Source: Amphiscolops sp. MND2022 (taxonomy: Eukaryota). From it: a DNA stretch of 64,000 bases. Shown here one piece after another: positions 22,405 to 59,469 of this stretch. The stretch is from contig OZ076409.1 of the NCBI GenBank assembly GCA_964187785.1, positions 54,004,001-54,068,000 on the forward strand, in the 5' to 3' direction. Both the position numbers and the translations under genes were made by a program. The notes below the pieces were generated by a model. The model did not search any database, had not been told where the DNA came from, and saw only the letters and a list, made by a program, of their open reading frames with translations. Within the stretch, counting starts at the first letter, position 1; each line of letters opens with the position of its first letter.

Positions 22405-24591
22405 AGTCGAACCCCACTCTGTGGGTCGGCTTTGAAGAACTTTGCGATGACGAAGGTAAGTTATTTTCGTCATTTTTACCAATAACTGCCATTAATAAGT
22501 TCTTCAGTTGACTAAATTCGCTTTGTAACTCATTTATCTTCCTCTCATAGTTCTCTTTTATTTCAGACAACTGGGACGAGATATCTGAAGCCTCATTGGT
22601 GTCAGAATCGTTGGAGGATGTTTGAGCCATATCCGGATCTGCTGGTGAAGGCGTTTCTAATGAAGAATTAATGATTTTACCGTTTCTAAGCTCCGTACCT
22701 TGATCCGGGTTCATATAGACAAGTGAAAAGAATTATGAGTGAAGACTGGATTATCTGAGATGTTGTTTCAATGTATTTTTGCTGATTTAACTGAATATTC
22801 GATCTCAAATTCACTAATCTGAAACTGAGATGTTTTAGAAAGAAGTCGTACAAATAAGTAAGCAGTTAGGTAAGGAGAAGGAAAACTAGCAAGATATTTA
22901 GAAGGAGTTCATCCAATTTTTATCGCAGTCGTAGATGTACCAAGAAGTTACTCAGTTTAAATTCCTCAATTTCTGAAGATGAAATAGAGATGTGTTTTTC
23001 TGACTTTCGCGTGTTTTAATATCTCACTGATCGGTAGCTTGTCGGTATTCGGGCTGAGTAATATTTTATGGCGGCCCAAATTACAGCAGTTCACGTGTCT
23101 TTTCGGTTGGTAAGACGCTAAACCTCTTACCAACCTTCTCTCATTGGCTGTTACCAGCTGGTGTTAAAATGGTAAGTCACGTGACCAGTGTTGTGAACTG
23201 CCGCAAAGTGGCCACGCACCATGGTACATCTACATGTGTTAATGGTGTTTAGTCATCAATTTACAATGTCGCAATTGCCTGCACTATAGTAACTGGTTTC
23301 TATAGTAACTAAAATGGACTCAAATCATTCAATAACGCACTAATTTCAAGCAAATTTAAGGTAAAGCACACTTTGGGATGGGAAAACGATGTTTTCCGCT
23401 GATTCTAGCACCAAAATCAATGATTTAAAACTTGAAGATGGAAATGCGATGAACTTGTAAGAATATTTGCTGATTTCCAAGTATAGTTTAGCTCTGGATG
23501 AAAATGCGATGAATGGTAGTCTTTCTCGCTCGGCAATCTACACAATTCAAACTGACGATGACAAAAGGATGAACTCCATGCATAATTTGCCAATTTCCAG
23601 CACAGATTCAAATGACGATGAATTAGGGATGAATTCAGTCGATAAACGCTAATTCTAGTACAGGAGAATTTTGGCGATGAGTTTAGGATGAACTTGTCAG
23701 TTAAAACAGCAAATACCAAAGCAGTACAAATTGGCGATGAGTTTAGGATGAACTCACCCACTAAAATGGTTAATTTTCAGCACAAACGAAATCAAGATGA
23801 ATTGAGGATGGGTTTACTAAACAAATCAGATAACCAGCACTTTCACTCTTTTTTAGGATGAATTAAGGATGTACTTTCTCATTTCTCTTCTGTACTAGTG
23901 AACGCGATGAATAAAGGATGGACTACTGTTCTTTAGAAATGAGAAGCACATTCAGGAATTACTAAATGAAATAATCACGATGAATTAAAGATGAGTTTTA
24001 CTAGAATAAGTCCCATAAAATCCGTTGATGGATTTCTGATGAAAGTCAGTTTAAAGTCCCATGTTTTGTTCACTCGCAAACTTTAAGGATGGGATTGCGA
24101 TGAACTTTGGTTAAAAACACCGTTGAACCCGCTGATGGATCCAAGTGAAATTTCTGATCAGATCAAAATCGTCATCAAATTCGACGATGAATTTGTGATG
24201 AATTTAATGGAATTTGTCACAACTACATACTCTGAGGCGGGGAGTTAGTAGAAGTTATATTTTCCATTACTTCCATTATTCCTCGGTCCAGTCTGATCGG
24301 AAAACTTCTCTCCCTTGTCGTGACAAACCAATATTTATGAAATATAGCACATTCAAGGCCAGATTCTGGCAAGATCATTTATGCGGACACCGGAACTAGA
24401 GCGCTCAGTATTAAGTAAATATATATAACTCACACTCAGGGGGAAAGGGATTAAGGTACAAGTAACGTAGAGTTGCTCACAACCATGGCTCTTATTATAT
24501 GACATCATATTGCCCATATCTAAGTACATAAGACATAATATTTACATTACAGATATTTAGTAGATTATATTTCCATCATGCTGGCATGACA
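22405..24591 (-). repeat. Element A 3' LTR (2187 bp)
   Basis: Direct repeat of 38854-41037, roughly 99% identical by eye. Minus-strand termini TGTCATG...TTCGACT. Contains the 103-aa Gag N-terminal copy (22403-22714). Confidence 0.97.
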
Positions 24592-25003
24592 CTCCCCGGG
24601 GCGGGATTTTGGACTGAGAGTGCAGGGGCCAAATGTGCAGAGGATGGTTGTCTCGGCGTTGGCTTCGACTGGTCCTTCGTTTGGTTGGGGAGAAAATATC
24701 CTTCGTTAGTTCTGAATTGGCATATCCTTCGTTTGTTCTGTCCTGTGTGAACCTTCTCTGAGAAGAGGATTTCCGGCTATCGTCATGTCTGGCTTTTTCT
24801 GGGTGATTTCGGTTAAAGAATTTCGACGCGGCAACTCTAATTCTTGGCCCATCGAATGTCCGCTGATCTGCATTTAATTGGTTGTCATGCTTTTGGTGGG
24901 AGCTCGGTATGTCGATTGTTTCGGTGGAAATCTCGATTTCCTGGTGAAAAGACTTCCCCAGGTCGCCTACGCTAAGTAAACATTCTGCTAGCTTCGTTGA
25001 CAA
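24557..25003 (-). CDS. Putative sense-strand accessory ORF running into the element A 3' LTR
   Basis: 148-codon open frame crossing the internal/LTR junction at 24591, positionally equivalent to 45115-45900 in element B. No in-frame ATG. Confidence 0.3.
   Translation of the reverse strand: MSTKLAECLLSVGDLGKSFHQEIEISTETIDIPSSHQKHDNQLNADQRTFDGPRIRVAASKFFNRNHPEKARHDDSRKSSSQRRFTQDRTNEGYANSELTKDIFSPTKRRTSRSQRRDNHPLHIWPLHSQSKIPPRGVSCQHDGNIIY
24592..24608 (-). promoter_or_regulatory. Atypical short polypurine-tract position of element A
   Basis: Minus strand AATCCCGCCCCGGGGAG directly precedes the TG of the 3' LTR; only the last 6 nt are purines. Confidence 0.45.
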
Positions 25004-25761
25004 TTTGTCAGTAAATCGGCGCCATTTCCTGTCTGCTGAAGTTTCTTGAGATGAATGAACGATGAATTGTTTACTCAGCGAGACATCGATGTTGACTTAG
25101 CAGACGGCTGGCGCCGCCACTCTGTCAATTTCCGCGATAAGAAAGAGATGAACTGTCGTCATAGCAACCGTCGCTGTCGCTTCCGCTGTCTGATTTTCTC
25201 AGCGATGAGAAAGAGATGAAATCGTCGCCATAGCAACTACTGCTAAATTCTGATTGGCTAGAAACTGAACTTTCTGAACTGAAGGAAATTCAACCGGTTG
25301 TTAACAAACAATCTCATCCTTGAATCATCCTCCGTCAAGCCGTTTTGAAAATCGCCACGATTTCCTTTGCGCGTTTTCCGCTCAACTTCGTCGCTATTGA
25401 ATTCGAGACTGGCAGCTGTCGTCAAATCAAATACTTGAAGCTTTTGTAGTCAAATTCTGGGGGGCGATTCGTTTTCAGAGAAAATTGTCAAGTTGGTTGA
25501 ATTGGGAAGAAAAATGTAGACAGTCATCGAAATCGGAGAGTCTTCATCGATTTTTCATCTTTTGAATTTCAAGTATTTGGTTTTGTCCTGGCACTCAAGC
25601 TGCATCCGCGCTCTTTGAAGTTTTCCGTGAATTCGTATTTCGTAATCATGGTTGATCAGGCCATTTAATTACTGATCAAATTCTTGTCCTCAGATTCTTC
25701 GATTTCTTTCCCTTCTTCACTTTCTTCCATTCCTTTTCAGATTGTTTGCAAATCTACAGCG

Positions 25762-28700
25762 ATGTCTGACATCCACTCCGTTTATTCTCTTCCAGAGACT
25801 GAAGCCACAGAAAGTAAGTGCACTATTTTTTCTTTTCTTTCACAAAACAGGTTAGGGAACAATTAGGTACTGAAGGCGCGTCTTGGTTTTAGCAGACTCC
25901 GTTCACTCTGTCGGCGTCATTTCCGAGCTGACTATATTACAGACAATTCCGCCTCAAGAGGCTCCTATCCATGCAGCAGCTCCCGTTCCTCAATTACAGC
26001 TTGATCAGCAGTTTGAACAGCTCCCTAATGTCCCGTACCTTCCGCAGTGTAAGTTCCATCCTCCCAGATCATCATGTTCAGTCTACAATCTCTTCGTTTC
26101 CCTTCCCTGATCCATTCAGACGCTGACTCTTTCCGTTTGATGTTTAGATCACTATCCCTGGTATGCCTCCCTTGGTAGCATTACCTTTGGGTGGTATGAC
26201 CGCCACATGCGGGACATGCTGCGAGAGAGTATCCAGCAGTATAGTGAGTAAACTCCTTTTCACTTTCTTACTATACTAGGCCATCGTTCGGACACTCCGA
26301 TGTAATTCCGATGTAAACATCTCATCTGCATGTAGTGCCCTTTACGGTCGATTATCCATGTAATTCATTTTAAGATGAATTTAGGATGTGTCATGAACAT
26401 TCACAGCCTTTTCTGATTGACTCACTGCGAATTTCATTTTTTGAAGATGGGTTATGGATGAATTCTGCTCCAGACTTCTTTCTTTGCGCGGCGTACGCGC
26501 TCTTTCTTCTCCACTCGTCGTCGTCTGATTTCTGTTTTTCTTCCTTCAGGCCCAACGCCAATTCACGCACCGAGACCGCGTCCTATCACTTACTCCATTG
26601 CGATTGGGACCAGTGACTTCGGCAATGACAGTGTCGACGTCAGTACCCAAGGAGGGCCTCCTCAGCTTGATTTCTCTTCATTCCTGTGTGACCTGCCCCT
26701 GACTGGTGTGAGTTCTCCTGTCACTCGTGCTCCAGTCTCTGTTCTGTCCCCTGTCTTGAGACGGTCCTTAACTGTTGCCAGTCCTCCTTCTGCCCGTCTT
26801 ACTGTTGATGCAGGAGTCAATGCCATCGTCACTCCTGTTGATGTGGCAGTCGATGCCGTCGTCGCTGCCTCTGATCAAGCAGTTCAGGCCGTCGTGGAAG
26901 TCAGTGAGTCTTCCACTTCTTATGATCCTCCTGTTGAGGAAACTGCTATTGCTGCTTCGTCTTCTGTCCCTGCTGTGCGCCCTGTACTGGAAACTGCTCT
27001 TGTTGCTGTTAGTGCCTCTGAGGTTGTCGAGCCAGCTGTGGACCAACCTGCTCCTCCTGTCAGCGGCGCAGAAGGACCTAGTGACGTTCCTGAGGATTCA
27101 GCTAGCAGCACTGAAGCCTTACTGGAAATTCCTGAGGACTTTTCTGCCGGTAGCCTTCTGTCTGCTGAGCCTGATCAAGAGACTGCTCCTTCCAGTCCAG
27201 ACCTTACAACTGCCGTTACCTCTCCCATGAGGGCCAGTCTGCTGGACTCTGATGATGAACCAATTGCGTCTCGTCTGCCAGGTTAACTAAACAGCTTTAA
27301 ATCCTGTGAAGTATCTGATCAGTAACTTTTCGTTCGTTTCTCTTTTCATTTTCACTTTTATTAGTTTTTTCACGTTTTTCCTTCGTTTTCCATCTATTTC
27401 CCATCGTTTTCTGTATTCACTATTCGGTTTCTGTAGTTTTCTATTTTCATCACTTTCTCATCGTCAAAAGTCTTGAATATAGCGTTTTTTCTTTTCTGGT
27501 CATTTTTTAGAACTTTTCATCTCTTTTACATCCTTAAAATTTTCCGTTTCTGTTTTAGCAATTTTCGTCGTTTTCTTTTCAGTTTACATCTCTTTTTCAT
27601 CATTAAGTTGTTTTCGCTCTGAAATATCTCAATTTTGGTTCAAAATTCGTTCTATACATCTCTTTTTCATTTTTTCGTTTTTTCTTCGTTTTTCGCTTGT
27701 ATTTCCAATGAAAATATTATTTTACATCATGTTTTCATTACTCCGGGGGAGCTTTTTGAAGTTTTCATTGGATTTTCGAGTTTTCGTTTTCTGAGGATGT
27801 GTAGAGGATGAGTTTTACAATTTCGTTTCACTTGTGATTTCAGGGAAGAAAATACTTAAGGCAAAATGGTTTAACCATGTCTATTGTGGATTGGCGCTCG
27901 GATATCCAAAAGATCATCTGACGCGCGATTCTTACGTGAGGTGTCTTCTCTGCAAACAAGATGTAAAGATTGCTAGCCGCGGAATTACAACGTTTTTCGA
28001 ACATTGCCGTGGAATGAGGCACCACCGTCTGGACTGCTTGGTGCGATTGCGACGGGGGCTGGCGTTGAGAAAGCGAGACGGGACACTGATGTCCGAAACT
28101 GAGGCAAATGCGTATGCGACGACGTTAGCCGGTGAAACGGTGCCAGTGGTTGAGTCATGTCCCAGCGTGACAGTGATCGAGGCTCTACAGACTGAGGCAG
28201 CTGGCAGGTCCGTGTGGGGCGAGTTATGTGCGGTGGACGACAGTGAGCAGCTTGAAAGTGTGCGGCTATTTGTGTGCCTAGTCGTGGATGCTATTTATCG
28301 CGACTGTGACTTCTCAAGTGTGACGCATCTGTGGGACTTGATGGTGTCTTCGAATCCTGCTCATTCGGTCTTGTTTGGTGCGGCGTGTCGAGAAGCGGAC
28401 GCCCTGGTTATTATGTTTTGGTTATTGAATGTCATTTTACATGTTACATGTGTTTGTGGTTACTAGCAATCAAAGCTGGAAGGTTGTTTTTTGGGTTAGG
28501 GGCGTGTTAAAAGCAAAATTTGGGCAATGTATTTTGGGTAAGTCTATTTTTGTGTGTTTAGAGTTTGGTCCTGATGGGGTTTTGGCCCTATGTAATGCGG
28601 CGAGTGTTGAACTTGTGGACAGAGACTGAGTTCACTCGGTTTGGTGTGGCTATTGTGGGCGATCGAGTGGTGGGCACTGTCAACGTGTGCACTGTGGAGG

Positions 28701-30439
28701 GGCTCGCTAGTTATGTGGTCCTGTCCTTCAATTATTCTCAAGACTGGGAACAGCGTGTGGTCATCTGGATGATCAATTTACTTTGTTGTGTCGTGGGGCA
28801 GGTTTCGCCTGTCGGAGTTAGTTGTAGTCTGCTTCCCAGATTGGAGGACGTGTTGGTGGGGAACACTGGATTGGGAGCTGTCTCACTGGTTCCTCTGCGG
28901 ATTAGTGATATAAACAAGATCCTTGTGGACGTGAGTGTGCGCGTTATGGGTGGAGTCGATGTGCATTCTTTGCTTAATCATTTACAGACGCGATTGAAAG
29001 ACTTCGTGCAGGATGCTGTCCTCCTGAGTTGTCCGAACTTATTGCAAGTGAGTATGTGTTCTGTATTGGTTTTTCTAACATTTTAGTTTATTGTTTTCGG
29101 GGGTTTTGTGCTTGGGTTGTGCGAGTGATGGGTCTTGATGAGATGTTTTTATCCACTTGGTGTATTATATTTTAGTCTGTGCCAGAGGGAGAAGTTACGC
29201 TATGGGATGTACCCGATGTACTGACGGATCTCTATACTCATTGGTCAGAGATTGTTGTGCTCCTGAGGGTGCCAAGCAGTTCTGGGGTGTCTGAGACGCT
29301 TGACCTTGTATTGTGTGGTGACCCTAGTGTCTCCTTTCGACTTCATGCATTGTCGCTGGTATTCCGTGCTCGTATGTATATTTCAATTTCATAGTGTGTT
29401 ATTTGGTGGTGGGGGGAGACGTGAAGTAGTAGATCGAAAATATAGTTGTAGATCTTGGGGGGCGGCTGTTATAAACCCTTCTGTATAAATTTTTGGTTTG
29501 ATTTTAGTCGTTAATTCTTTTCGCTGGAGCTTCAGCAGCTGTGAATTGAGGACGTCACATTGGGCATACGAGAGTTCGTGTTTCGTACATGCTATCTTAT
29601 CGTATCTCGTTGAGGAATCAGAGCTCCCTGTTGTGGTAGATGTACGAGCCAGCTTGTGCCTTGAACTCGATGGACTTGTGGTTTCTGACGCCAAAATGAC
29701 TGTGCTTCGCGAGAAGTTTATTTCTCACATGAACTGTTTTGAGAGCCCAGCTGTATTTGAAGAGAATGTGGTGCTAGTCAAGGACTTTATGATGATGGTC
29801 GTGGGTGAGGTCTTGTGCGCACGGGGCATGAAAGAGGAAGTGACCTTTCACATGAGTGTCTGTTGTCCTGCCCTGTTATTGCTGGGTGATCCTGAAGTGC
29901 TGTCAGTAGAAGTTGGACATTTTACAGATTTATTGATGGATTTGAGACGAGTCACTGTGGTGGAAAAGAAACGGATGGACAGGAGTTTTCCTGTCTTTCT
30001 TGCAAATTTTCGGCGGATTACAACTGATGTGACCTCAGACAGTGCGAGTTCTGCTGTCAAGATTATGCGAGCGTGTGAAAGTGTGCCTGCGCAGCGGCTG
30101 TTCAGGTATCTCATGTGTCTGAACGAGAGTCCACCATTTCCACTCAGGAGTTTATGTGACAGTGTGGGTGAGTTGCGGAGTGATATCACGACCAGCGTGT
30201 GCTCCAGTGTTTTGAGTTTTCTCAAGGCTCATTGCATCCGAACTTATGATAGTGTTAGCGGTCCGTTATTGGGGGAAATCGCTGAATATTTTGGGCGATT
30301 TACGACTCTGCCTGGCGTAACTGAAGAGATGTTATGGGATGATGTCGGTGTTGTGGCAACCGAAGATTACCGTCAGTCTCTTTACGCAATGATGGGGTTC
30401 ACTGAAGAGGGAGAACGAGCTCCGAGTCCGGAGATTTGA
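25762..30439 (+). CDS. Element A antisense spliced accessory gene: BED-type zinc finger plus inactive hAT-transposase-like protein, 1070 aa predicted
   Basis: Exons 25762-25813, 25893-26048, 26148-26243, 26550-27281, 27844-28406, 28562-29047, 29176-29371, 29508-30439. All introns are GT..AG with compatible phases (1,1,1,1,0,0,1). Total 3213 nt with no internal stop. Zinc finger CLLC...FEHCRGMRH in exon 5. Confidence 0.85.
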
Positions 30440-32565
30440 AATACTTGCATTGAATTTTTGATTGTGACTTGTTTTCATTTCGTATATTAGTATTAGTGTT
30501 TTGTATTATGTTATAGTATAACTTGGTGGGTGACCAAATCAATGTGCCACTGCAAGTGTTGGGGGGGCGATAAAAACTGCTGCGGCGGAAAAATCGGCAG
30601 CAGGCATATGTACAGAATAGTTATTTGGCGCCCGAATTGGTTTTTTCTTGAGATGCTAGTGAGTAGGAACACAGGTAGGGAAAATTTTGCGATTCATTGT
30701 TTCGCATTTTGTTATTATGCCACGTCGTTGAGTTTTATATTACCGGTCGTCATCGCTTCCGCTTCGCTTTTTCGATGTCGCACTTTCTCAGGTAACTTTT
30801 GCATGGCGTTCATCATTGTTACATCTCTTGTGTTTGTTGGTAGGTCCTCAACGCTTTGGTTCTGATTTATCATCTCGTTTTCATCGCGTTTTCCTCAGTC
30901 GACCGAGCGACGTCGCGAAAATTGTTTTCTCATCTTTTTTATATCGTTTGTTACGTAGGAAACATTGCATGTTGTTATATGTATTTTATCTGCATGGTCC
31001 ATCGTCTTTTCATCGTTAGTTTGTATTTTAACATTTTTACACGTTATTTGGTATAGTTCATCTTCTTTTCATCGTAATTTTGAAATTTTGTAATTTTGTG
31101 CGTTTTCGTGGCTATGTGACTCTGACGTTTTCGGGAATGTACTTTTCATATGGTATGTGCATGTTTTACTCATTTTATACTGTCTCAGTATGATTTTCAT
31201 TCTCTTTTTAATTTTACATGTCGTTTTGGTGTTCGTGGTATTTTCATAATGTAATCTTTTAATGGGTTACCCCATTATTTGCATGTTGGTTATTTCTTGA
31301 TTTTGTTCGTCAATTTGGACAGGGCTTTGTCGTCACAAAGCCCCTACAAAACTAACTGAGAATCCACTAGCCGCTGGATAACCAACGCAGCAAGCTTCAT
31401 CCGAATATGGTTGTGAGCTCCCCGCCTCAACTAACCAGCACTCTTTTCAGAGAAATGCCAGCCAGCACGAAGGAATGTTTTTAGTTTTTCGATAGGGGTG
31501 TTTTGCTTGTTATGAACTGATGTTTGCTGGGGGGTGCTCACTCCTTTATTCGTTTTGTAGGTGTTTCGTCAGTTCTTATATTTTGCATGTAAGTTATTAG
31601 ACTTCATGTATTTTCGATTGTTTGTTTCATTTTTTTTCGTCTAGGTTTGGATGGCTTTGGTGTGAATTGCATATATTATCTCGTTCGTTTTTAAACGGTA
31701 CATGTATATTTCCGTGTGTTACTCATTTGTATTGCATGTAGTTTGGAATTGTCAATTTCTTTCGTGACGTCATTGATTTGGCAGGTCTTTGAACTTTACA
31801 TGTATTGATCATTTCATTTTCGTGTCGCATAATTCTGTTTGCATGATTCGAAATAAAGTCGGTTGTTTTTTATCGTTTCGTGGAGTTACATGTTGTTTGA
31901 GAGTTAGCTGATTTATTGTGATGTTATGTTGATGGTGTTTCCCATCGCAAGGAGGTTTTGGTAAGTCATTTAATATTTTCGAACTTCCATTTAGACTAAA
32001 TTCATCGTTTTGACATCCTCCAGCGAAGCTAGAGTATTCTGTCAGGTTAACGATAAATTCGGTCACGATTTGATGGTAGTGTCCATCACAAATTCATCTC
32101 GTTAATTGATTTCATGTAATTTCTGAATAATTGGATCGAATTCATCGCTATTTCATCCTCTAGCCGAGCTAGAGTATTATGACAGCATGAACGTGAGTGC
32201 GTTCGCATTCTGATGGTATTTTCCATCTCAAATGCATCGCTAGTAGATATTGCATGTTGATTGGTCGAATTTTTGACTGAGTTCATCACTTTTTCATCTC
32301 TCGTGTGTCTGAGCTAATTTTTCATGTGATTTCATCCTTTTTTCATCTCAAATTTTTGTGTGTTGTTTTTTCTGGTTTTTTGGTCGTTTTTCATCCGTTT
32401 TACATCGTGTTTTGTTTTTATGCGTTTTTCATGTGATTTTTAGTGACTTCTCATCCATTTTACATCTTCATGTTCATTTTAAATTGAAATTGCATGTAAT
32501 TGACTCGGTTTTGTGAATTGTTCATCTTTAACACATCGTGTGTTTTGAAATGTTGTTTTTCTTGG

Positions 32566-42445: not shown

Positions 42446-42902
42446 CCCGGATCCAAATTCATAAGTCTTCCATGCGATTCCATGCATGGAACCATATGGT
42501 TCCATACGATAATTTCATGCCGTTTCCATGCATGGCATCGCATGGAATCATATGGTTCCATGCATGGAATCGCATGGAATCATATGGTTCCATGCATGGA
42601 ATCGCATGGAATCATATGGTTCCATGCATGGAATCGCATGGAATCATATGGTTCCATGTATGGAATCGTATGGAATCATATGGTTCCATGCATGGAATCG
42701 TATGGAATCATATGGTTCCATGCATGGAATCGCATGGAATTATATAATTGTAGACATGAAATCGGATTGAATCATATGGAAAACGAAGGAAACCACAGTA
42801 ATGACATCTGGAAATATCGAAAACATTACAGTAAGATCTAAAACAACAGGTCATGCTTCCATGCATGAAATTGCATGGAAGCCTTATGAATTTGGATCCG
42901 GG
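42446..42902. mobile_element. MITE-like element with ~50-bp imperfect TIRs and an internal 32-bp tandem array
   Basis: CCCGGATCCAAATTCATAAG... and ...CTTATGAATTTGGATCCGGG. Flanked by TG on both sides (possible 2-bp TSD). About 6.5 copies of CATGGAATCATATGGTTCCATGCATGGAATCG at 42541-42740. Confidence 0.85.
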
Positions 42903-46811: not shown

Positions 46812-49800
46812 ATGTCTTCAACTACAGGTTGGTTTGAATTTTCATTTTGAACAAACTCAACTTGACCAGGGTTAAATTTTGTTCACAAGATGCTTCCTGT
46901 ATCCACTAATGAGCACATGATACCTCATTTCATTCAAGTTTTCAAGATACTTCCGGAAGTTTTCTAATGCGGTAGAATGGATTTCTTTCAAGGAAGCTTA
47001 CTGCCAAATTTCATCCCCTTCTGTTTAGATAATCAGAATACTGATGAACATCAATTCCAAACCAACACCGCATCTGTCAATCTTGCTGAGCCTTCTCAAA
47101 GTTCGATTCCTGTTCCAGTTTTAAGAGCTACTCCGAATCCAGTTTCTTCTCCGCCTCCATTCCCTCCAATCAGAGCTGTTCACAGTCAAGCTCCACAGAT
47201 GGCTGCCGATTCTCCTTTCAGTAGTGGGAGTAATGTTGACGTCAGGGCTTACGCGGACGAGGTAGTCCAGCGAATGGAAGTCTCACAGGAGCTCATTGAC
47301 ACCAATCTTATTAATCCCACTGAGGAGCGGCCCCTTACGGCTCAAGGTCAAAATACCCCAAATGCGAGTCATGTCTCTGAATTTGTGAGAACCAGGACAC
47401 CAACTCCACCTGAGCAGTCCGGAGCAGAGGAGGTCAGCCTCTCATTGCTTGAATCCACATTGTCAGTGGCACCACAGACACAATCTGGTTTCCCTGAACT
47501 ACAACTTGCCCAGATTCAGACTCATGAGACACCTGCAGTTTCCTTCCTGCATCTTCCGTTCATGAGCCTCCTCCACTTCCCGCAGGAACCGGACAGCTTA
47601 AAACCCCAGGGGACCACAGTGACACCAACCACACTATGGAAACTACTAGTCGGTCCGAAATCCCTCTCTTTTACGCTACCATCCCTTTTGGCGCGGAGTC
47701 AGCGTCGGAAGGGTGTGAAGACTCAGGGTTGGAAGCACATGATCCAGGACCACCAGGGACGTCCAAATTCGTCCATCAACTTTAAGAGGAAGTTTTGCGA
47801 TATCTGTCAGGGCGAAGTAGAGCTATCCTGAAACAGTATTTTGAGACCGACGATCCCTACACCTTCCCGGTCGGGCAGAGGGTCGTAGCCTTCACAGAGC
47901 CACAAGTCTACCATCTGCTTCGAGTCCTGACTGATGAAGCCATAAATATGACTTGTACAACCATGGAAAGGATGGTAATTGGAGCTGTCAAAGGGACACC
48001 AGTGACTGTCCCATCACAAGCCGAGAAGTTTCGAACGCGGGACCGAACTCCCACCCCAGGACCTAATCAACCAGCTGAGTCTAGTTCCGATGGATTCTCA
48101 GCTGAACTTGGCTCTGGGCCTGGTTCCCAACTTGACTTGAGCACGCTTCAGGATGTTAGCGATTTCCCCTATCTTGCAGATAGCGATAACTCCACAGAAA
48201 AGGCCCTGATTGATCAGGTTTATAGTAAGACTGTTCCCGAGAGCCTCTCCACAGCGGCACAACAGAGACAGCCATTAGATTCGTCAGGGGAAGGGGCTGA
48301 AACAGCAGAAAAGAGTAGCCTCGACGTCACCTTATCCGAGGTCCCTGATCGGCTCCCTGACCGAAAGTCCCGCCAAGGGGTAACGACGACTAAGAAGGGC
48401 AAATCCAAGAGGGTTCCAAGACGAGGAGTACCAATGCGCGAGGAGTTCTTCTCTAAGATTGGGTGGACTAGGTCCTTCATTTCCGGCCCGGCGGATCCTC
48501 TGCATAACCCTCACATGGTGTGGTGCCACATGTGCAAGAAGAATTTCAGCATCAACACCAAGGGCACCATGGAGATCCTGCGTCATCACAGGACGGAAAA
48601 ACACCTCCGCCGCGACCAAAGATGGCGGTATGAACATCTCAAGACCATTGATGATGTGACCGGGAAGGTCCAGCACAAAGTTCGCGGGAGGGATGGCAAA
48701 ATCCTCAACAAGATTGACCTCGCACATGAGTTTCCCAAGTTCATTCACGCGGAACTTGTTGACGTTGGCGTGAGACATCCTTTCTACGAGGACTACTTGA
48801 AAGGACACGCCTTTGCTCCAGTTACTCCCCAATCGCGGTTGCAAACCCAAATTTGTCTCTTGGGAGACTTCGTCCAGGACTCAGGCAACCTAACCATCCT
48901 CCGTAGATTGTGGGCAAGGGCAGGGAGTTATACTGGATTCCAGGCAGCTTTCCAGGATTTTGACTGGAGCGAAGATCACATCATGGTAAATTCACCCGTT
49001 TGTTCTCTTGTAAGGTTATACGTAGCGTAAGAGCGACTTGTGGGAATGAGATCACACAATCATCCAAATTTGTTCCGTTTCAGGCCATTTTCCAACACGT
49101 CTTCAACTGCATGATGGAGGACGTGGCCGAACAGGTCGTCGCTTCCCAACACTTTGGGATTGAATTCGAGAAGAGAGGAGCTAACCGCTTCATGTCTCTT
49201 CGATTCTGGAAGGGTGCGAAACTTTGCCGCATCTTCATCTGTCGAAGTAGTCTTGCTAGCGTTGGGCTCACTGAAGAATTGGGTTCTCTGTCTCGACTAT
49301 TGTCCGTCGTTTCAACTACTCCCGACGTAGTCGCGATTTCAGGATGTGCCGTCGACTTGATAAGGACAGTGGACCAACATCCTTCCTATCCACGAGGGGT
49401 TCAAAGTTGCTTCCGCTTCGAGTCACTTGACCTGAGGACCTTAATGCACAAGATGAACTACAGCGTCTTTGGGCATATAGACATGTTTTCCGTCCTCCAA
49501 AGGCTTCTGGTCTCGCTTGGGGGTTGTCTAACTGAGGACTGGGTCACGTAATCAGCTGAACTTGTCCGGGTAAGTCTACGTTGTGAATCTAATCTGCACA
49601 ACACCGGTGACGGGGGGTGGTAGTCAACGACAGTTAGGACTTCGATCATATGAACTACTTTGTTTAGGCCATCACGACCTGTAAGCTGGAAGTAGCCAAA
49701 ATACCTGATTTGTGTCGCGATCTGCTGAAAAGGTGGAAGTCGGTCCTCCGCTACCTCACTATACACTCGCACCGACAGGAAAACCAGGGGGTCCACAACA

Positions 49801-51217
49801 AGGTTATAACTCACGAAAATATCTGTCTCCTTTCAGAGAGGGTCCTAATGACCGTTCTCTCTTACCGACATAGGTAGGGTTATTGTCTCATATCTACATC
49901 ATGTGTTTCCACAGGTCCAGAGCTTCGAGTGGTCCCTAATTATGGACAACTTCTTCGCTGTCAAATTGGAGTTATTTCAACGCTTGGTCAGCGATTGTGA
50001 GTATTTCTAGTTTGGTAAAGTCACTTCGGTCTGTTCCCCTTTTAGGCACCTTTAATTTTAATGTTTTAGACGTCACTAGTTTCGTCATCAGTTTGGGCCA
50101 GAGGCGAGATGCTACCTTCTTTCTCTGTGGAGAGGTATGCAAACACATCAACCGTCTTTGGTTTCGCATTTATCAGCCCGACACAGTACCTCTGGAAAGT
50201 GCTTGGTTCCTGCTGATGGATTTCCGGATAAGTCAGGGCAAACTCATGAGTGACGAGTACTTTCTAGTGCGCCTCAAAATTGCCAGTAAGGTGACCACTG
50301 CGAGCAACCTGAAGGCGGCCGGACTTCATTTTAACAAGAAGTCACGCAAGGCAGCCATCAATAAGACCGCTGAAAGTGCAAAGTCAGATTTTGTGGGAAG
50401 TGCAAGGGATTTCATCAAGTTCCTGTTATCAGGGGTGCTCCAGCATACCGAGCTCGGATCCGACCTCATCAAAGGATTGGCTGCATTTGATCCGCACATC
50501 TTGTTCAGGAGGCCCGTAGAAGTTGCCTTAAGGCATTTTGATCGTTTGCATTCCACATTTCAGCTGCGTTCTTGGGTTTCGGCGTCCAACGAATCAGTTT
50601 GTCGGGACGAGTATGTTGCCTTGTTGGACTACCTCCGAGCCAACCATTCCTCTGAGTTCAGCTCAGCCAGTGACCCTCCTGACCTCATTGACTTCTTCAT
50701 GGATCTGGAGTTCCTCCAAACTCGCGAACATCTTTGTTATTTATTCAAATTGAGCTGCCTCTGTATCACTTCTGTAAGTACCGAGTATCCCTCAGTTTCC
50801 TTGGGGAGAGTCGACACAAAGAGGCTCCAGTCTCGTTTGGTAGACGTCATCTTGCCTTGCCAAAGTTATCTGTCGACAGTGCGTGATTCCTTGATTGCCT
50901 GCTGCACTAAATCTCGACTTGAGAAATTCTCCGAATTGTCCTCATCGTTCGGACAATCTGCTTTTGCCGCTGATTACGACCCTTGGACTTACGTAGACGG
51001 TTTTGGACGTTCTGCGATTTACAAGACTCTTGTCTCTTCCTATCGCTCTGCTCTCTCTGGGTCAGAGTTCCATTTTAGAAGTCCTGGTTTTGCTGATACT
51101 GCTCCTGCTGTCAAGCTGCCTAGTGATCGTAAGCGTAGGCGGATAGAAAGAAGTTGTTCCCGTAGTAGGGCCTCATCTGTCGTCGAAGAATGCCCTGCTG
51201 ATGGTTCTAAAAACTAA
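46812..51217 (+). pseudogene. Element B antisense spliced accessory gene (homologue of the element A gene), disrupted in this copy
   Basis: Exons 46812-46827, 47029-48985, 49084-49569, 49668-49802, 49915-49996, 50070-51217, all GT..AG and phase-compatible. BED-like WCHMC...ILRHHRTEKH. One frameshift near 47545 and TAA stops at ~47782 and 49549-49551. Confidence 0.85.
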
Positions 51218-51430
51218 TTGTACGTATGTATTTATGTACCTACAAACTGTAAACTTTGTTGATTTTCTGTTTTGTTTCTTTTGATTTCTTGATGTCTTGA
51301 TCACTTATTTATTCCTTTTTGTATGGGATCCTTTGAAATGCCCCAGTATTTATTCAAAAAAAATTCTCAGAGGGGCTTGAAAAAACAAAGATAAAAGAAA
51401 AGAATTCCCATTTCCGGGAAAATTCAATTC

Positions 51431-54400
51431 TTAGTATCTGAAGTCTTCTGAGTAGTTTGGGTTAGGGTTAGGTCTGAGATCATATTTCCCTCCTCTAGGG
51501 CTCAGACTTTCATTTCTAGCATCGTTTTTGGATATTTCGGGCACGATAATATCATCCCCCTCTTTTTGGAGAGTTTTGTGCACCGTTTTCATTCGTCAAA
51601 TTTTTTTCTGAGAGAATCTCATCTTTTTTTGGTCTTTCATCCGTATTCGGCAAAGTTTTTTCTTGACTTTTCGGGTGAACGGCCGGATTCGGCCAATCAG
51701 ATTTGTCATTGCTAGTCGCTTCACTAGCTTCATTCCTTTTTGTGACGTCATGATTTAATCTTTCATTCCGGCTCCGCGCCGCGTGGTCAGCGTAATTTGT
51801 TTCGTCACTCGTGATTATGTAATCCGCTTCATTCTCGTTTACGTCACTATGACTCGGTTCTGCCGCATGCGGATGTTCGCCATTCGGTAAGCTAGTCGGA
51901 ATGGGACTCTGTCCTCGTGTAACTAGTTGCTCACCAAAGTCTGTTTCCCACGTTATGACATACAAGTCGTCTTGCGGAATGACAATCTCGTCGTCAGGTT
52001 GTAATCGCTGTTCTTGGAAATTGTCTTCAAGCGGTTGATTAGGGACAAACTTTTTAAGGCGAATCCGATGCAATATCTGAGTTTTGTTTGTATTAATTCG
52101 TCGTACAATATAATTCTCATTTGGCAAAACTTTTTGGACTACAAATGGCCCAACCCAACGGTAATCGCGGAATGGAATTTTTGATCCTTGATTGTCCGCT
52201 TTCGGCTGTAAGACAAAACAGTATTCGTTCTCCTTTAGTTGAGCGGCTTTTGCTTTGCGGTCGTAATATTCTTTGTACTTGATATACGACTGCATAATGT
52301 TCTGTTTCGTTTTGTCGATCAGGATTTTTGTCCGGTTTTGGATTTCTTCAGCAAATTCGGTTGTGGGGTTGATCTGCTCGTTTGGATTATTTCCAAGCTT
52401 GTGATCCAAAATATTAAATGGAATTCGTCCCTGGAATACTCTCGTCGGCTCATAACCGATGCTGGCGTGATATCTAGTATTATGTTTCAGTACTGCTAAT
52501 GGCAAGTATTTGTGCCATTGTTGGCGATATTCCCCACATGCCATTTTGAGATTTGTTTTCAATGAGGCATGAGTTCGCTCCAATTTCCCAATTGTCTGCG
52601 GGTGTTTTGTTGTTGCACATTTGAGTGTTATACCCAAAATTTGCGTAACCTCCGCAATAATTGTAGAAGTGAATGCAGTACCCTTATCAGTAATAAGAGT
52701 CGTTGGCAGATATGCGTGTTTAGTCATGATGTCAATGAGCGCTTTTGCTACATTGATCGCTGATGCGTCCGTAAGGGAATAGGCGAACAAATATCTGGAG
52801 AATACGTCAATTGCCGTTAGGACATTTTCATACCCTCCACTTGGGGGAAGATTCGGCAATAGGTCGATTTGCATGGCGTCTTCAGGTCCAAGGTCCCATT
52901 CGGGCAAATTGAGCAGCTCCGGTGTGATCGTTGCATTAGGGACTCGCTTGTCTCTTGCGCATTGTTCACACCCCTCTACCCATTTTTTGACGTGTTTAGC
53001 CATGTTAGGATAGTACTACCTCTGTCGGATTTCCTGCAACATTTTTGAAATGCCAGGATGTTTATGCGCTGTCCCGTGAAGGGACTGAAGCAATTCCTGT
53101 AGTAAATGTTGCGGGAGCAGAATTTGATGGTATTTAACGTTCCCTGTTTCATCAAAGTATTGTCTTGTCAGGATTTCGTCCTTTAGTACAATTCGTTCCT
53201 GATTGTTTGCGTAATGTCTATGTCGGGCATCCTGGTGCAGTAGATTTTCTGAATACTCTTCACGAAGCAGTTTTGCTTTCAATTGTTGTAGTACTGCATC
53301 TTTGGATTGCTCGATGATGATCTGGTTCGTTTTCCTCAATCGGACTTGTATATCGGGGTGTTGCTTGACCAGATTTGTTGACAGAGTGTTTATAGTAACA
53401 GTGGGCTCATCAGTTGCTGGATTTTTTCTGGTTGCTTCTTTTCTTGCCCAATACTGTTCCTCTGTCTCATCGTCGTCATTGGTGTAGAAGATTTGTTCTT
53501 CTTGTGACACCCCTGCGGATTGGAAATTGATTTCGATTGGTAGTGTTTGTACATCTTCACGAATTTTCATCACCAATTTGTCCTTCGGGTCTGCTTCCAA
53601 TCGGGACAAATAGTCGGCAGCTGTATTTTGTGCCCCCGAGATGTGCGCTATGACAAAATTGAACTGGATAACATAGTCACATGCGTTCCACAGTGCTGGG
53701 GGTATTATTTTCGTTTGGAAAAATCGTGTTACAGCTTTGTTGTCCGTAAGGTTGATGACCGATTTCGGCGCACCCCAGAAGATATGTCCGAATTCTTTGA
53801 ATGCAAAATAGATTGCAAGAAATTCTTTAGCATAAATTGACATTTTGATCTGTGCTGGGGTGAAAGTTTTTGATCCATATGCAACCGGTGCATACGATTT
53901 CCTGAGTGATGTAAATTTCTGGCTTGGGTCGTCTTCAATTAGGACCGCGTATCCGGCTGCACCGAAACTTGCATCAGTCATTAGTGCTATTTGCTTGTTT
54001 GGAATGGGTTGCTGTAGGGCCAAGTCTCAACGTTTGTCTAGTGCTCTATTGATTTCTTTGAATTGTTGGACTAATTCTTTCGATACTAGGACCTTTTCGT
54101 CACTTTTGAGCATCTTGTAGAATGGAGCAAGGCGTTCGGAGAGTCTTGGGACATAATTCCTGTAGTAGTTTAGGAATCCCAAATAGCGCTGTAAAGCTTT
54201 TTTCGACTTCGGGAATTTGGTCTTTTCCAGAAAGTTTTGCACATTCTGTTTCTGGGGTTTGACGCCTTGTGGGGTAATAGTCCGTCCGAGAAAATCAATT
54301 TCTTTTGCACCGAAGTGTCATTTGTGCATTGTTAATTTAAGGCCTGCTTCCTGAATGCATTTGAACGTAGCTCTCAGGTTCGTTATGAGGTGGTCAGCAT

Positions 54401-56641
54401 CATTGGCTGCGATGCCGATATCGTCCACATACTGGGCACACTGATCCGCTTTAATGACTTTGTCGAGGTATTCCCTCATGAAACTCGAGAATGCAGATAG
54501 TGACCGACTAAGGCCTTGTGCCAAACGTCTGTAGGCGAATGTGCGACTGGCAAAATTGAAAGCCAACATTTCGATTGAACGTTGGTCGGCCATTGGTAGG
54601 CAGTGGTATGCCTGCGAACAGTCTAATTTACAGAACAGTTTTTTGCCTGCCAAGTGTTGGGCAGCATCAACTAGTGTACTGACGGGGTGATTATTGTTGA
54701 TATAGTCATCCGAGATGAGGTAGTTGATTTTTCTCAAGTCAACCAAGAGTCGGCGTTTCCCATTCAGTTTCTTTTGTGCGAATATTGGACTCGCATATTT
54801 CGAGAATGGTAGGGAAGTGATTATGCCATATTTGTGTAACATGGCTAATTCAACTAGGATGTCCTCCTTCAAGTTGATAGGAGCTGGAAGGCTTTGACTA
54901 TAGGCTGGGGAATCGTCCTTAGGCGTCAATTTGACCTTGAATTCCTCGTTCATGCCTATATCGAATCGATGTCGTGCAAATATGTCATGGAATTCCACTT
55001 ACAATTCCTCAATTTTATCCTTTTCTTCAGGAGTAAGGGTGGAGTCCTTCAAATCAAAGTTTTCTAAGAATTTTGCACGCGATTCCTCATCTTTGGTGGG
55101 GTCGAGTGTCTCCAGGTCCTGTAAGGCCTGTAATTCTCGAAGGATTCGTTTTTGTATAAGTGTGTGTTCCTCAGGATTTCCAGGATTTTCTGGAGTTGGG
55201 AACCAGTAATTTTCAGAATTTTGAGAATTTCTGTTTGTCTTGATGAAACTGCTGACATAGTGGGCTGCCTGTTCTTGGTCGTTTTGCAAGAGGTGCGAGG
55301 TTGATGCCGGATCTACCGGTTTGACGTATTTCATCAATTCTGGCGTCATGACTGAGAAATTGGCAATGTGAAGTCCCTTTTTGAGTTTATAAGTGTGGTC
55401 TGTGAAGTTGTTCACTGGTATCATTATAATGCCATCATTCAGAGTGACCAATGCTGGGCAAAATGTAATGTCGCCTTCTTCATGTAGAAGGTCGCTCGGT
55501 TGCAAAATTCCAGTAACCGCATTCTCAGGGTACAGTAAGGAGTTGGTCCTAATTAGGACTCTGTCATTTGGCGGAATTGTTATTTCAGTGGGGTTGAGAA
55601 TCGGTTCCAGTACGTTAGAGTATTTGTGATCAGCTGTTTTAAGCTGCATTGAAAAGAACGGGAAATTTAGTATCCCTTGTCTCATGTCCAGAACTGTATG
55701 GTTTCTTTGAAGGAACATTAGTCCAATGATCGGACCTGTCAGATGTTCCATCACTATGAAAATCTCGTGGAACGCGATGTCTCCAACTTCAAATTTGAGC
55801 TCTATTGTACTCTTAGGAGTTTCCAATTGCCCATTAGCGACCAATATTTGGAAATTCGGAGGCGGACCTTCCCGGATAACAGATTGTGGAGATAAAAGTC
55901 GAATTTCCGGAGGTCCATTTCAGGAATTGCACTGGACAGCGCTCCAGTGTCAATGAGTCCGTCAATGGTCAATTCCCCAAAGTCCATTGGGAAATACAAC
56001 ATGCGTTTTTGGCATTTAAGGTTTATGTTGGTTGACAAGGGTATACAGTCTGGTTCACCGTCTCTAGTTATTAAGACATTTTGGAACTGTTTCTCGTCTA
56101 GTAATGATTGTGGTACGGATTCAACATTGCTGTCATGGGTCTCGGTCCCCAATGGGTTTGGGAACACTGGATGGTTTGTGCCATCATTCATTTGCCAGTT
56201 TTCAAATAATGCTCTGGTCTTCTTATTGTGGGTGATTGGAGGGTTCTCGTGGATTGTCCGATTGTAGTGTTCAATATCATCTAGAACGTAATGAAATTGT
56301 AATAGTTCTTGATTATAGATCTCGGTGTCCCAATAGGGATCTCTGCCGTAGTCTTGATCGATATACGTTGGATTGTAGTTATCGACTAGGGGAATGGGCC
56401 TGAACCGGGTAGTAAAGGTGGTGGTATAGTCAGGGTCCCAAACAGGAATTGGTTTCTGGAATTAATAGGTGTTGTAGGTGATGGTGATAGCTTTGTCCAT
56501 CTGTTGCTGCCAGACAACAGAGGGATAGCCCATCAATTGTTTTGTATCCTGATGAAAGGTTTTTGTTGAAGGATCCGACCTGATGTATTGGCGGACGGAT
56601 ATCAGTTCGTTGTATTGGAGTCGTGTTGAAGTTAGTTTTTT
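51431..56641 (-). pseudogene. pol: Element B pol, broken by several stops and frameshifts
   Basis: LIDTGA (55802-56191), QYVDD (54318-54998), RNase H TDAS (53016-54023), integrase IDLLP/TDKG/LERTH (51552-53003). Tail KYDLRPNPNPNYSEDFRY runs to 51431. Confidence 0.93.
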
Positions 56642-58286
56642 GACTCATCATTAGAGGATGAGGATTGTGAGTTTGAAGATGTTGGTCTATTTTGCGGCTT
56701 CTGGGCCTTTGAGGTGGGCTTACCGTCATTGGCGTCATCTGGTCTGGTGCGTTTGGGTTTGAGATGCGCGCCAGAACCTTGCCAACATTTTTCCTCCGGG
56801 TGGTTATTTTTGCCACAAGTACCACACTCCGGATATGTTTTCTTCTGTGTTTGTTTGCCTTGTTGGGCATCTTTTTCTTTTTTCTTTTTGAGTTTTTCGC
56901 AGTCCGTGACCATATGGCCCTTTTCCTTGCAATAATTGCAAGTAATGTCTGACATTTGCCCAGTGGACAGAGGAGTTTTGGATTTTGTAGTCGAGGAGGT
57001 CATTGTGGCCATTGGTAGGTCATCTGATTCTTCAAGGGCGTTGAGTTCCAACTCTCTCTCCAAATGAGCAACAATTTCATCATATGAGCCATTTTCTAAT
57101 CTGGCCATGTTGACAGACCGCTTCAACTTAGGTGGCAGCTTTGCGTAAAGCAAGCTGTCAATCATTTTCTGTGCATGATCACCAAACGCCTTCTCGGCTC
57201 CCTGGTTTAATTCTTCGAGAAAATCAGGCAGCTTCATCGTATTGGGATCGAAGACCAGACGGTGCCATTTATGTTTGGCAGTCGCCTGTGACTCAGGCTT
57301 GACGTATTTTCGTCTAAAGATGACTAATACGTCCTCTAGAGTTTGTCGGTTGCTTGAGCTGATATTTCTGAATGTCTGAAGAGCATTCGTCCTCAATAAT
57401 GAGTGGAAGTGATTGATCTTCATTTGCTCAGTCATTTCTGGCTGCATCTTGATAATAGTGTGAAATAGATCTTCGAACAGCTCGAATTTCTCACTTTTGC
57501 CGTCGAATGTCATGGTATTTGAATTGACTGGGCGTATGGTGAGTTGTTGGGCTGTCGGTCTATTCTGCATTGTAGTCAAGACGTCTGCTAGTCTAGTGAT
57601 GGTGTCGGAGTCAGCAGCCGTAGCGATTCTCTCTTGTGCTGGGATCGTCGTGCCAAGGTTGATGTCCTCAAAGGACCTGTCGAGATGATTTCTGGATGAG
57701 ATTCGTCCTGTGAGAAGCTTAGGAACTGTATTTGGAGATTCGTTGTCTCCTGTCACCATGTCATGAACATTACGGTATGTTTTGTCACCACGTTCACTAT
57801 TAAGAGTAGTTTTAGCTTTCGCGTTGTGCTGAACTGCGGAATAACTTTCCGGTCTCTCATCAGGCCTCTCCCATCCCCTTCTAGTCTCCTGTCCTGAACC
57901 GGCCATAATAACGTTTTGAATCTGGGGCAAAACCTGGTTGTGGATGGCGTCACTTATGGCTCTCTGGATCTGAGAACTAACACTGTTCATCATCTCATCC
58001 ATCTCTCTAGATTTTCTAGAGTTCAATTCACTCGATAACTTATTGATCTCAGCTTGAGAATCTATACTTGCTGAGTTTTGGTCATAACCGGCACAAGTCC
58101 CGGCTCCAAGATTTCTATGATCGGAATGAAGGTTCATTTCTTCATTTACCAAATTACTACTGGTAATACTTTCCTGCCTCCTAGTGGAAGTTCTATCGAG
58201 ACTTCCGTCTCTTCCTGTATCATTGAAGTGATTTTCACTAATCCTCTAGATTTCCTTGCTTTCTTTTGCTTTCTTGTGGTAGGCAT
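56632..58286 (-). CDS. gag: Element B Gag, starting inside the 5' LTR (N-terminus frameshifted)
   Basis: ORF 56632-58152 has two CCHC knuckles (CNYCKEKGHMVTDC, CGTCGKNNHPEEKC). The presumed start MPTTRKQKK at 58286 is out of frame. Confidence 0.9.
56635..56641 (-). promoter_or_regulatory. -1 ribosomal frameshift slippery heptamer A AAA AAC (element B gag/pol)
   Basis: TCA AAA AAC TAA at the gag stop; the -1 frame stays open (QKTNFNTTPIQR). Confidence 0.8.
57747..57758 (-). promoter_or_regulatory. Element B primer-binding site
   Basis: TGGTGACAGGAG abuts the CA end of the 5' LTR; identical 12-mer to the element A PBS. Confidence 0.85.
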
Positions 58287-59469
58287 TAAGACTGAACCGC
58301 GTTGAATACTTGAATTATCAATTCCGGAAAATAACAGTGAAACCGTTTGTATTTATGAACGTCTTTATCAAATGGGAAAAGTAAAAGTCTGAGCCTTCCT
58401 GCAGGGGTATGGGTATTTATACCTCTGCAAAGATGACACATACATTTTTTACATACTTTGATCAAGACAAATCATAGGATTTTACAATCATCATGAGGAA
58501 ATCTCCGACAATTACATATTTCCGGGGGACATTCAAAGAATGGTATTCAAAGTCATCACTTTAAGTAGCAACTTCAAACAGTCTATCGGTCAGACCTACT
58601 TCAAGTGTGATGTAAACAAATATCACAACTTGCATATTTTATAGTGTTGTAAAATGAAGGCACGTGCCGGTACAAGTTTACTGCAAATTAAGCTGAAAAT
58701 GGAATGTACTACAATGTGTGGAATTCTAATACTGCATCGATATTCACGAAAATACACTCGCATATCAGAGCCGGAATAGGCCCAAATCCATAACATGTAC
58801 TGCGCATATGAAGGACATGGTAAAAAGGCCTCAACCGTCCCTTTATTGAAGTTGGAAATATACAAACATCAAACACCACAAACGTATTTATTTAGGCTAA
58901 TATCACGATCTAATAGCTCTGCATAAGTATTGATTCAATTAGGCAATGAAGGTATTATTATGCTTGAATTGGCCGAAACTGTCCATTTGACTGAGGGACT
59001 GGTATAAATTAGCACCGCTTAGTCAATAGGCCTTATCCGGCCATCATAAATAAAGCACTCATAATTAGCAAAAGCAATGTTCTGATTGGCTAATAATCGT
59101 ACTGAAAGTTACATCGCCGAGAAGGGACGTTTTCTCACTTGAACACGTTTCCTTCTCGCGATTAACCTGCTTATTGTACGTTGCCGCTTTTATCAAATTT
59201 CACACTCTATTTGTAATACAGTAAAACTTCCTTTACAAATCTCAAACCACAACCTGGTTTGGATAGCTCCAAACCGTAATTTTAACAGACTAATATCACG
59301 AACAATTATATAAAAATGCACTTGATTAAACAAAAATGAATGTGATCAACAAATAAATATAAGTTTCAGCAAGGGGAAGTTTAAAACGTGGGTAGGGTAC
59401 CTGGGACGACTTCTTGATTTTCCGCTGACGTCGTTATTAATGTGCCGTCACAGGCGGCAGCCTGTGACA
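57759..59469 (-). repeat. Element B 5' LTR (1711 bp)
   Basis: Direct repeat of 43493-45203, followed by the PBS. Confidence 0.97.

Follow-up and report, generated by a model that had tools for sequence, protein, structure and literature searches.

Antisense accessory ORFs, from plant Retand, and giant Gypsy elements in animals, from Burro, are both known already. Systems comparable to the one described here include Retand/Tat of plants (Grande, RIRE2, Retand) and the fungal Boty; in Retand/Tat, antisense ORFs lie between pol and the 3' LTR (PMC11963269, PMC7264820). For these plant ORFs an origin from another transposable element is unsupported, insertion of a nested element being listed as a possibility (PMC11963269, PMC7264820). 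The Burro elements of planarians exceed 30 kb and have additional domains within a single sense polyprotein some 4,900 aa long, as given in PMC6431247, in whose text the word "antisense" is absent. Extra genes 3' of pol are also found in animal Gypsy-like elements, namely bdelloid LTR elements with captured ORF3s and errantiviruses with env: these ORF3s encode env, esterase or exonuclease, typically from spliced element RNA, and the relevant part of PMC5408684 mentions no antisense or intron-bearing ORF3.

The window analyzed here, a stretch of 64,000 nucleotides from Amphiscolops sp. MND2022, contains two full-length Gypsy-type LTR retrotransposons, E1 of family A (22405..41037) and E2 of family B (43493..59469), both on the minus strand, as are their LTRs, primer-binding sites (PBS), gag and pol. 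A preliminary description had put them at 18.6 and 16.0 kb; they measure 18,633 and 15,977 bp, each with a 5-bp TSD (ACACT and ACTAT, respectively). It had also described their LTRs as dissimilar and their Gag and Pol as diverged, in agreement with the lack of any mutual blastn match between the LTRs and with identities of 27% in Gag and 69% in RT.

The two LTRs of E1 (2,188 bp) are 99.1% alike and have the terminus CT, unlike the TG..CA of most copies. The 5' LTR (38854..41037) contains the gag start and seven copies of a CGATGAA motif at 39896-40634, and the 3' LTR (22405..24591) has the CGATGAA array at 23447-24185. The PBS (38842..38853) complements the 3' end of tRNA-Leu(CAG). Gag (37658..39163), which features CCHC knuckles, begins at an ATG 310 nt within the LTR and ends at the slippery GGGTTTT and a stop; pol (32569..37667) is in the -1 frame and has, in the present copy, a single in-frame stop and a single frame change. 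E2 is an older copy with multiple breaks, its LTRs (1,712 bp) being 98.6% alike. Its 5' LTR (57759..59469) contains the 5' part of gag and is followed by a tRNA-Leu PBS (57747..57758); the gag open frame, stop to stop (56632..58245), ends at the slippery AAAAAAC and a stop, pol (51434..56644) has five stops and two frame changes in the present copy, and the 3' LTR (43493..45203) has no canonical PPT upstream.

[quoted passage not shown] Gag starts about 590 nt inside the 5' LTR in most B copies and about 380 nt inside it in D; the slippery heptamer is GGGTTTT in A and AAAAAAC in B and D, and pol follows in the -1 frame. The Pfam domain order is PR-RT-RNaseH-IN in both E1 and E2 Pol. Odin elements have a dual RNase H, a tether and a new RH (PMC9040795); in E1 Pol, Pfam recognized a single Gypsy-type RH, no second RH being seen, and a gap of 200 aa between RH and IN. 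Purines make up 5 to 11 of the 15 bases upstream of the 3' LTR in A, B, D and F (7 in E1), versus 12 to 14 in five other Gypsy elements, so that a canonical PPT is absent; the priming site is atypical, and the LTR boundaries are well defined. When PDB was searched with the RT, foamy-virus RT (1e-33) ranked over Ty3 (1e-22), and an RT-based metagenome scan found no relatives. Ten distant homologues bore no names. The clade is large and recently active: copies number at least in the hundreds, and are among the most abundant repeats of this genome.

Elements of the clade range from 15.6 to 19.5 kb, with a separate gag. They resemble Burro/GYPSM1 of planarians and plant Ogre, likewise Gypsy elements that are oversized and have additional coding capacity, present in thousands of copies, according to PMC6431247. 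The earlier label "giant" has to be qualified, 16-19 kb falling below the 20-kb bar on the internal region set in PMC6431247. Membership in Burro/GYPSM1, with its >30 kb and single giant ORF1 polyprotein, was rejected on size and on the separate gag; in the present clade Pol is ordinary, at about 1,700 aa, with the extras encoded by genes of their own. Troyka was rejected as well, the present clade having TG..CA termini in most copies and 5-bp TSDs, as opposed to CG..CG termini and 3-bp TSDs (PMC12440569).

The antisense gene lies on the plus strand in both elements. In E1 (25762..30439) it has eight predicted exons (25762-25813, 25893-26048, 26148-26243, 26550-27281, 27844-28406, 28562-29047, 29176-29371 and 29508-30439) and 1,070 codons, every predicted intron being GT-AG and the reading frame being without a stop. 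In E2 (46977..51217) five exons are predicted (46977-48985, 49084-49569, 49668-49802, 49915-49996 and 50070-51217), exon 1 being damaged by a frameshift and a stop, and exon 2 by a stop. Standard annotation would overlook such a spliced antisense gene of more than 1,000 aa in a highly abundant repeat. The layout that the preliminary description had assigned to both elements thus holds for the LTR gag start, the PBS, the -1 pol and the antisense multi-exon gene, while the sense ORF is lacking in E1's family. Its phrase "complex-retrovirus-like" is a loose analogy, the plant Retand/Tat layout, in which an antisense ORF likewise separates pol from the 3' LTR, being closer. TRP28 (PF04195), a Retand/Tat domain, had no match in any Pfam scan of the present elements. 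The gene further differs from those of Retand/Tat in being intron-rich, encoding about 1,100-1,300 aa, being likely hAT-derived and being paired with a divergent sense ORF.

That the antisense gene belongs to the lineage, as had been claimed for the cassette, is seen in copies picked irrespective of it: the gene is present in 34 of 36 clade copies, and in none of 10 other Gypsy elements. The gene is homologous across the four families and is under purifying selection, dN/dS being about 0.04-0.12 in structured exons, from few and non-independent pairs, and GT-AG splice sites are retained across variants with saturated synonymous sites. Judging from its sequence, it is presumably spliced and transcribed. 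Clade-wide presence, dN/dS and splice sites all support the earlier view that the gene is kept by selection rather than being chance cargo. That the gene is merely a hAT transposon nested in the element and decaying there as neutral cargo is very improbable: an insertion event would fit the likely hAT ancestry and the antisense orientation, but dN/dS is low despite absent catalytic residues, the position is constant in four families, all 10 cassette-anchored loci lie within LTR elements, and inverted repeats are missing (none of 12 bp or more spans the gene in E1, and E2 has one chance-level 12-mer). This reading is largely refuted. P0193 had no match in this genome at E<=1e-60, which hints that the gene may be present in another genome.

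The antisense gene probably derives from a hAT transposase. Its product in E1 shows a disordered N-terminus, a CX2CX16HX5H finger, an RNase H-like exon and a helical C-terminus, and finger, core and C-terminus come in hAT-transposase order. The finger, of the BED type (CX2CXnHX3-5(H/C)), is found in A, B, D and F, and is unmatched by Pfam zf-BED. Two folds, made of E2 antisense exons 2 and 5 (pLDDT of the exon-2 model, 51), and a language-model search are each a weak pointer to hAT/Hermes: Hermes appeared in VIA rows at ranks 45 and 12, with Z within the chance range, in lists that do not exclude a family missing from them, and the Atlas recognition value, 2084, was under the reliability mark. 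No hAT match passed a significance threshold. Atlas gave no match with the exon-2 query, nor did Foldseek with the last exon at E<=0.001; a PDB sequence search with the antisense gene was empty, and Pfam found no hAT family among 124 members or in D and F exons. Profile comparison with two hAT sets, comparators possibly of the wrong subgroup, was non-significant (best E 0.011, reversed controls up to 0.051). These negative profile tests and sub-threshold structural matches would suit a functional gene of other origin, either a host gene that was captured or a new fold whose resemblance to hAT is fortuitous, much as the Retand TRP28 ORFs are of unknown origin; we consider this quite unlikely, since three separate parts indicate one family in the right order, and colinearity is not expected of a chance match. 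At two Asp positions of the hAT DDE triad, set by motif and not by superposition, Glu and Gly are found, and ERxFS is absent: the catalytic residues appear to be lost, and what the gene encodes is likely a hAT transposase that is catalytically dead.

Hosts are known to domesticate transposases, DAYSLEEPER being a host-domesticated hAT transposase; in the present case the domestication appears to be the work of another mobile element, across the class I/class II divide. Host-domesticated hATs are fixed host genes, whereas the "host" here is a transposon with at least hundreds of copies and many coexisting variants, and similarity to those genes is undetectable by profile. Unlike the plant antisense ORFs, the clade offers a case of an antisense ORF with traceable transposable-element ancestry. 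Searches of the open-access literature turned up no LTR element described as carrying a gene derived from hAT, though supplements could hold such families. In ZBED1/DREF and the BEAF finger, a BED finger and a hAT body are repurposed for DNA-binding regulation; CGATA is the sequence bound by BEAF, and the SUMO-ligase activity of ZBED1 keeps its targets active (PMC7471704).

On balance, we lean slightly towards a Gypsy clade with a captured dead hAT gene acting as a nuclear DNA-binding regulator that aids transcription of the element. The ancestor would have captured the transposase once, by insertion into the region between pol and the 3' LTR, and the protein would have been retained because it helps keep the element transcribed, its DNA binding resembling that of ZBED1/DREF. 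From standard LTR replication, the introns would outlast reverse transcription because they are antisense to the genomic RNA. The gene would be transcribed from its own promoter within a divergent spacer, which in E2 (45901..46976, without strand) separates the sense and antisense start codons and may be a bidirectional promoter. The antisense protein C-termini are basic and NLS-like, as judged by eye. This might also suit a role at integration or on cDNA, as a chromatin tether of the pre-integration complex or by LTR-end binding and nuclear import: hAT transposases bind transposon ends as multimers. Nuclear-import or accessory roles have been suggested for plant antisense ORFs (PMC7264820). 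Such a role is rather unlikely, as the family A core evolves independently of integrase and gag, unlike a dedicated partner, and the gene would sit on a separate antisense transcript.

Numerous old variants of the antisense gene share a near-identical pol in family A, indicating that variants were swapped by recombination; the folded core moves as a single block, independent of pol, gag and LTR. The 18 copies of A hold 11 deeply diverged variants and the 20 of B also hold 11, and swapping is clear mainly in A, because B pol is also fairly diverged (synonymous divergence 0.31-0.67). The preliminary description had missed both the likely hAT origin and this swapping. The old variants on one pol background form a natural series for probing the benefit of an accessory gene to retrotransposons. 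The number of variants and their moves as a block onto shared pol, a pattern which we would regard as typical of frequency-dependent selection, could reflect a selfish system of self-recognition or interference, whose variants exclude or poison rivals or bias transmission, rarity being favoured. We give this only a small chance: a toxin or nuclease signature is absent, B sense and antisense genes do not co-vary (rho 0.08-0.16), contrary to what a toxin and antidote would do, and RT-based ascertainment and repeated pol sweeps could yield the same picture.

The regulatory reading can be extended, tentatively and with somewhat less than even confidence, to a retrotransposon clade that domesticated an intron-rich dead hAT gene, in antisense so that its introns outlast copying, as its own chromatin regulator, dozens of ancient variants being swapped between backbones in an arms race with host silencing. 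As part of the favoured reading itself, old variants would be put onto successful pol backgrounds when the template switches between co-packaged RNAs, and diversifying or frequency-dependent selection would maintain them. A precedent for an accessory protein encoded by a transposable element and acting on cognate copies by way of a short motif that is repeated is VANC of VANDAL DNA transposons (PMC6719617), which the repeated CGATGAA motif of family A recalls. VANC, however, comes from Mutator-like elements of plants and its action is on DNA methylation, while the present function is putative, and no homology to the antisense gene was seen. Variant-specific LTR recognition in A is unsupported, core variants not tracking LTR type (rho 0.01-0.26), and no comparable motif array was found in B, D and F.

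A real gene under selection in B, D and F, the sense ORF carries a SUMO-interaction-like motif (SIM) there. In E2 (45115..45900, minus strand) it encodes about 260 aa, has a SIM-like VIYISSSEEE near 45799-45828 and a CxxC at the C-terminus, and ends 89 nt within the 3' LTR; it is conserved in E2's family, ending 89-91 nt within this LTR. Its product is a candidate SUMO-directed counter-silencing protein. There is about an even chance that the antisense protein binds DNA via its BED-like finger and counters host silencing for the element, in B, D and F alongside this SIM-bearing protein. The sense ORF earlier proposed in E1 (24557..25096, minus strand) shows no conservation as a gene within family A, where it is ruled out by a dN/dS of 0.75 and by frame-breaking indels (81 of 90 distinct ones); family A is active despite the absence of a SIM protein.

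The cassette lying between pol and the 3' LTR of the two retrotransposons in the window, a multi-exon gene on the opposite strand, is real, selected and found throughout a clade of four families, A, B, D and F. The two elements, put at 18.6 and 16.0 kb in the preliminary description, were recovered by self-comparison as two long direct-repeat pairs, complete with LTRs and TSDs: E1 (family A; 22405-41037, minus strand) measures 18,633 bp, with 2,188-bp LTRs 99.1% identical and TSD ACACT, and E2 (family B; 43493-59469, minus strand) 15,977 bp, with 1,712-bp LTRs 98.6% identical and TSD ACTAT. Both contain Gag knuckles and PR-RT-RH-IN domains recognized by Pfam, and the layout described as common to them was found from the 5' LTR to pol: gag starts within the 5' LTR, the PBS, TGGTGACAGGAG, directly adjoins the LTR end and corresponds to a tRNA-Leu(CAG) gene present in this genome (one of three loci is called as a tRNA), and a classic slippery heptamer is followed by pol in the -1 frame. 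The pol frame is broken in both, by one stop and one frame change in E1 and by five stops and two frame changes in E2. Elsewhere in the window, a family-B LTR fragment (10469-11707), 90% identical to the LTR of another B subfamily, is cut by an N gap (11710-11909), and a MITE-like palindromic array, eight tandem 32-nt copies within 50-nt inverted arms, lies between E1 and E2 (42446-42902).

The genome spans 1.07 Gb, with 13 large scaffolds among the matches listed, and the presence of Gypsy elements with env suggests that the host is an animal. Twenty E1-like (A) and 20 E2-like (B) copies were taken from RT searches, one A and three B copies being chosen with cassette matches known. Among those chosen without such knowledge, the cassette core, i.e. 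the folded exons of the gene, was present in 17 of 19 A copies and in all 17 B copies, always antisense; one of the two exceptions carries an internal deletion, the other is truncated. No cassette was seen in ten other Gypsy elements of the same genome, picked by RNase H search (three or four plain ones of 4-6 kb, five env-bearing ones of 12.5-13 kb, one of 13.9 kb). Within 400 kb of unselected sequence, the cassette occurred at one of five RT loci, its carrier representing a third family, D; the fourth, F, was reached through a distant homologue. All ten D/F loci fetched via the cassette fall within LTR-gag-pol elements laid out as in A and B. The thousands of first-look candidates are not copy numbers; scored matches amount to at least 99-150 per family.

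Full-length elements measure 18.6-19.5 kb in A, 16.0-16.5 kb in B, 15.7-16.6 kb in D and 15.6-16.0 kb in F; larger animal Gypsy elements exist, according to the available text of PMC6431247. LTR pairs are mostly 97.5-100% identical across the clade, which has therefore been active recently. The four families form a single RT branch with support 100, in trees built by quick methods on subsets of 19 and 21 rows and carrying a long-branch warning; A shares about 59% identity with B/D/F over RT-RH. The clade's branch in these trees is long, and in a PDB search the RT-RNase H at 34890-36122 matched foamy-virus RT (1e-33) better than Ty3 (1e-22). All A/B/D/F copies lack a purine-rich tract before the 3' LTR (5-11 purines out of 15; 24592-24606 in E1, 45204-45218 in E2); even so, they have multiplied recently, and their plus strand must be primed in some unusual way. 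Troyka was ruled out by termini and TSD, as given in the accessible text of PMC12440569, and membership of Odin is not indicated by that of PMC9040795.

In E1 the antisense gene is predicted to have eight exons, joined across GT-AG introns in phases that fit one another and totalling 1,070 codons with no stops. Despite varying intron lengths, GT-AG is found at 130 of 133 placed junctions in A (14 of 147, unplaced, were omitted) and at 76 of 80 in B (4 of 84 omitted likewise). Median dN/dS, computed from non-independent pairs with 0.1<dS<1.5, most other pairs being saturated, lies at 0.04-0.08 in the B exons (14-20 pairs per exon) and at 0.09-0.12 in the core exons of A (7-14 pairs), and reaches 0.27 in the disordered A exon; synonymous change is also in excess in the D and F genes. 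Low dN/dS in structured exons (0.04-0.12), along with GT-AG kept at nearly all placed junctions, supports the earlier proposal that the cassette is kept by selection and is not chance cargo. Judging from standard LTR replication, introns would survive because the antisense orientation keeps them from being splice sites on genomic RNA. Intron 3 is precisely missing in three of 20 placed B copies (L069, L075, L093), suggesting recombination with spliced mRNA, or intron gain. The A and B proteins are less than 25% identical and are, on sequence grounds, homologous, since their last exons align (E 3e-4), the D gene is matched by both profiles, a finger is common to both, and three introns occupy like positions in the same phase.

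Within family A, sampled on RT protein identity and not on synonymous sites, the median synonymous difference is 9% in RT, 5% in IN and 75-78% in the cassette core, and nucleotide identity passes across the core boundary from above 97% to unalignable. Eleven core variants were counted in 18 copies. Core exons co-vary with one another (Mantel rho 0.81-0.86); no co-variation was detected with RT (-0.02 to 0.05), gag, LTR (0.01-0.26) or their own N-terminal exon (0.06-0.17). Family B, with 11 variants in 20 copies, has a pol more diverged than that of A (0.31-0.67), and its variants correlate moderately with RT and LTR. The simplest reading is that old cassettes recombined onto spreading pol backgrounds, several variants being kept by selection.

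A sense ORF overlapping the 3' LTR had also been described as common to both elements: it stands for E2's family B and for D and F, and fails for E1's family A, where a dN/dS of 0.75 and frame breakage by 81 of 90 indels rule out a conserved gene. The B ORF (about 260-270 aa, dN/dS 0.10 from 6 pairs) has homologues in F (E 1e-27 to 1e-33) and a counterpart by position in D. Each of the 30 copies inspected from B, D and F has an ORF that terminates 86-99 nt into the 3' LTR. A SIM-like pattern occurs in 28 of these 30 ORFs (VIYISSDEE, VIDISSDEE, DSDIEVI), against once in 10,150 aa of Pol; E2 is one of the two misses, yet its motif is visible in the sequence.

Most likely, a hAT element inserted behind pol in an ancestor; it would then have lost its ends and catalysis, the remaining DNA-binding body being retained as a regulator. 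The available text of PMC7471704 describes a host counterpart, ZBED1/DREF, in which a hAT body was taken over by hosts as a regulator, whereas here the regulator would be the element's own. The same text reports that the BED finger of BEAF binds CGATA. Family A elements contain 13-20 CGATGAA motifs (2.5 expected), seven of them in the LTR, family-wide and not specific to a gene variant; B, D and F show no enrichment. In family A the motif is a lead as candidate target of the antisense protein. Our best guess for the latter, on a roughly even balance, is an anti-silencing role like that of VANC (PMC6719617, available text), with a SUMO-directed partner; alternatively, it may act in integration tethering or in self-recognition. 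Antisense accessory ORFs are already known from plant Retand elements, whereas the hAT origin, which is probable, is unusual: searches of open-access main texts returned no account of an LTR element with an accessory gene derived from hAT, and the accessible portions of PMC13524379, PMC5408684 and PMC12477816 describe no such gene.

The env-bearing 12.5-13 kb Gypsy elements have the same tRNA-Leu PBS as the clade and encode a DnaJ/HPD domain in a sense ORF downstream of env (PF00226; L104:2399-3517, plus strand, Pfam E 1.2e-8; L099:6770-7864, minus strand, E 0.007). The 13.9-kb Gypsy element (L113-L114) has 3-kb LTRs and about 1.5 kb devoid of long ORFs after pol. Another LTR element, of 18.9 kb (L151-L153, about G000:C1:54,192,600-54,211,500), has 733-bp LTRs and lacks the cassette; its long ORFs, four in number and all in sense orientation, encode 1554, 711, 812 and 1439 aa. 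The tRNA-Leu 3'-end pattern has 908 matches genome-wide, and most among the matches listed fall in a long tandem array containing it, at G000:C8:35.59-35.64 Mb.
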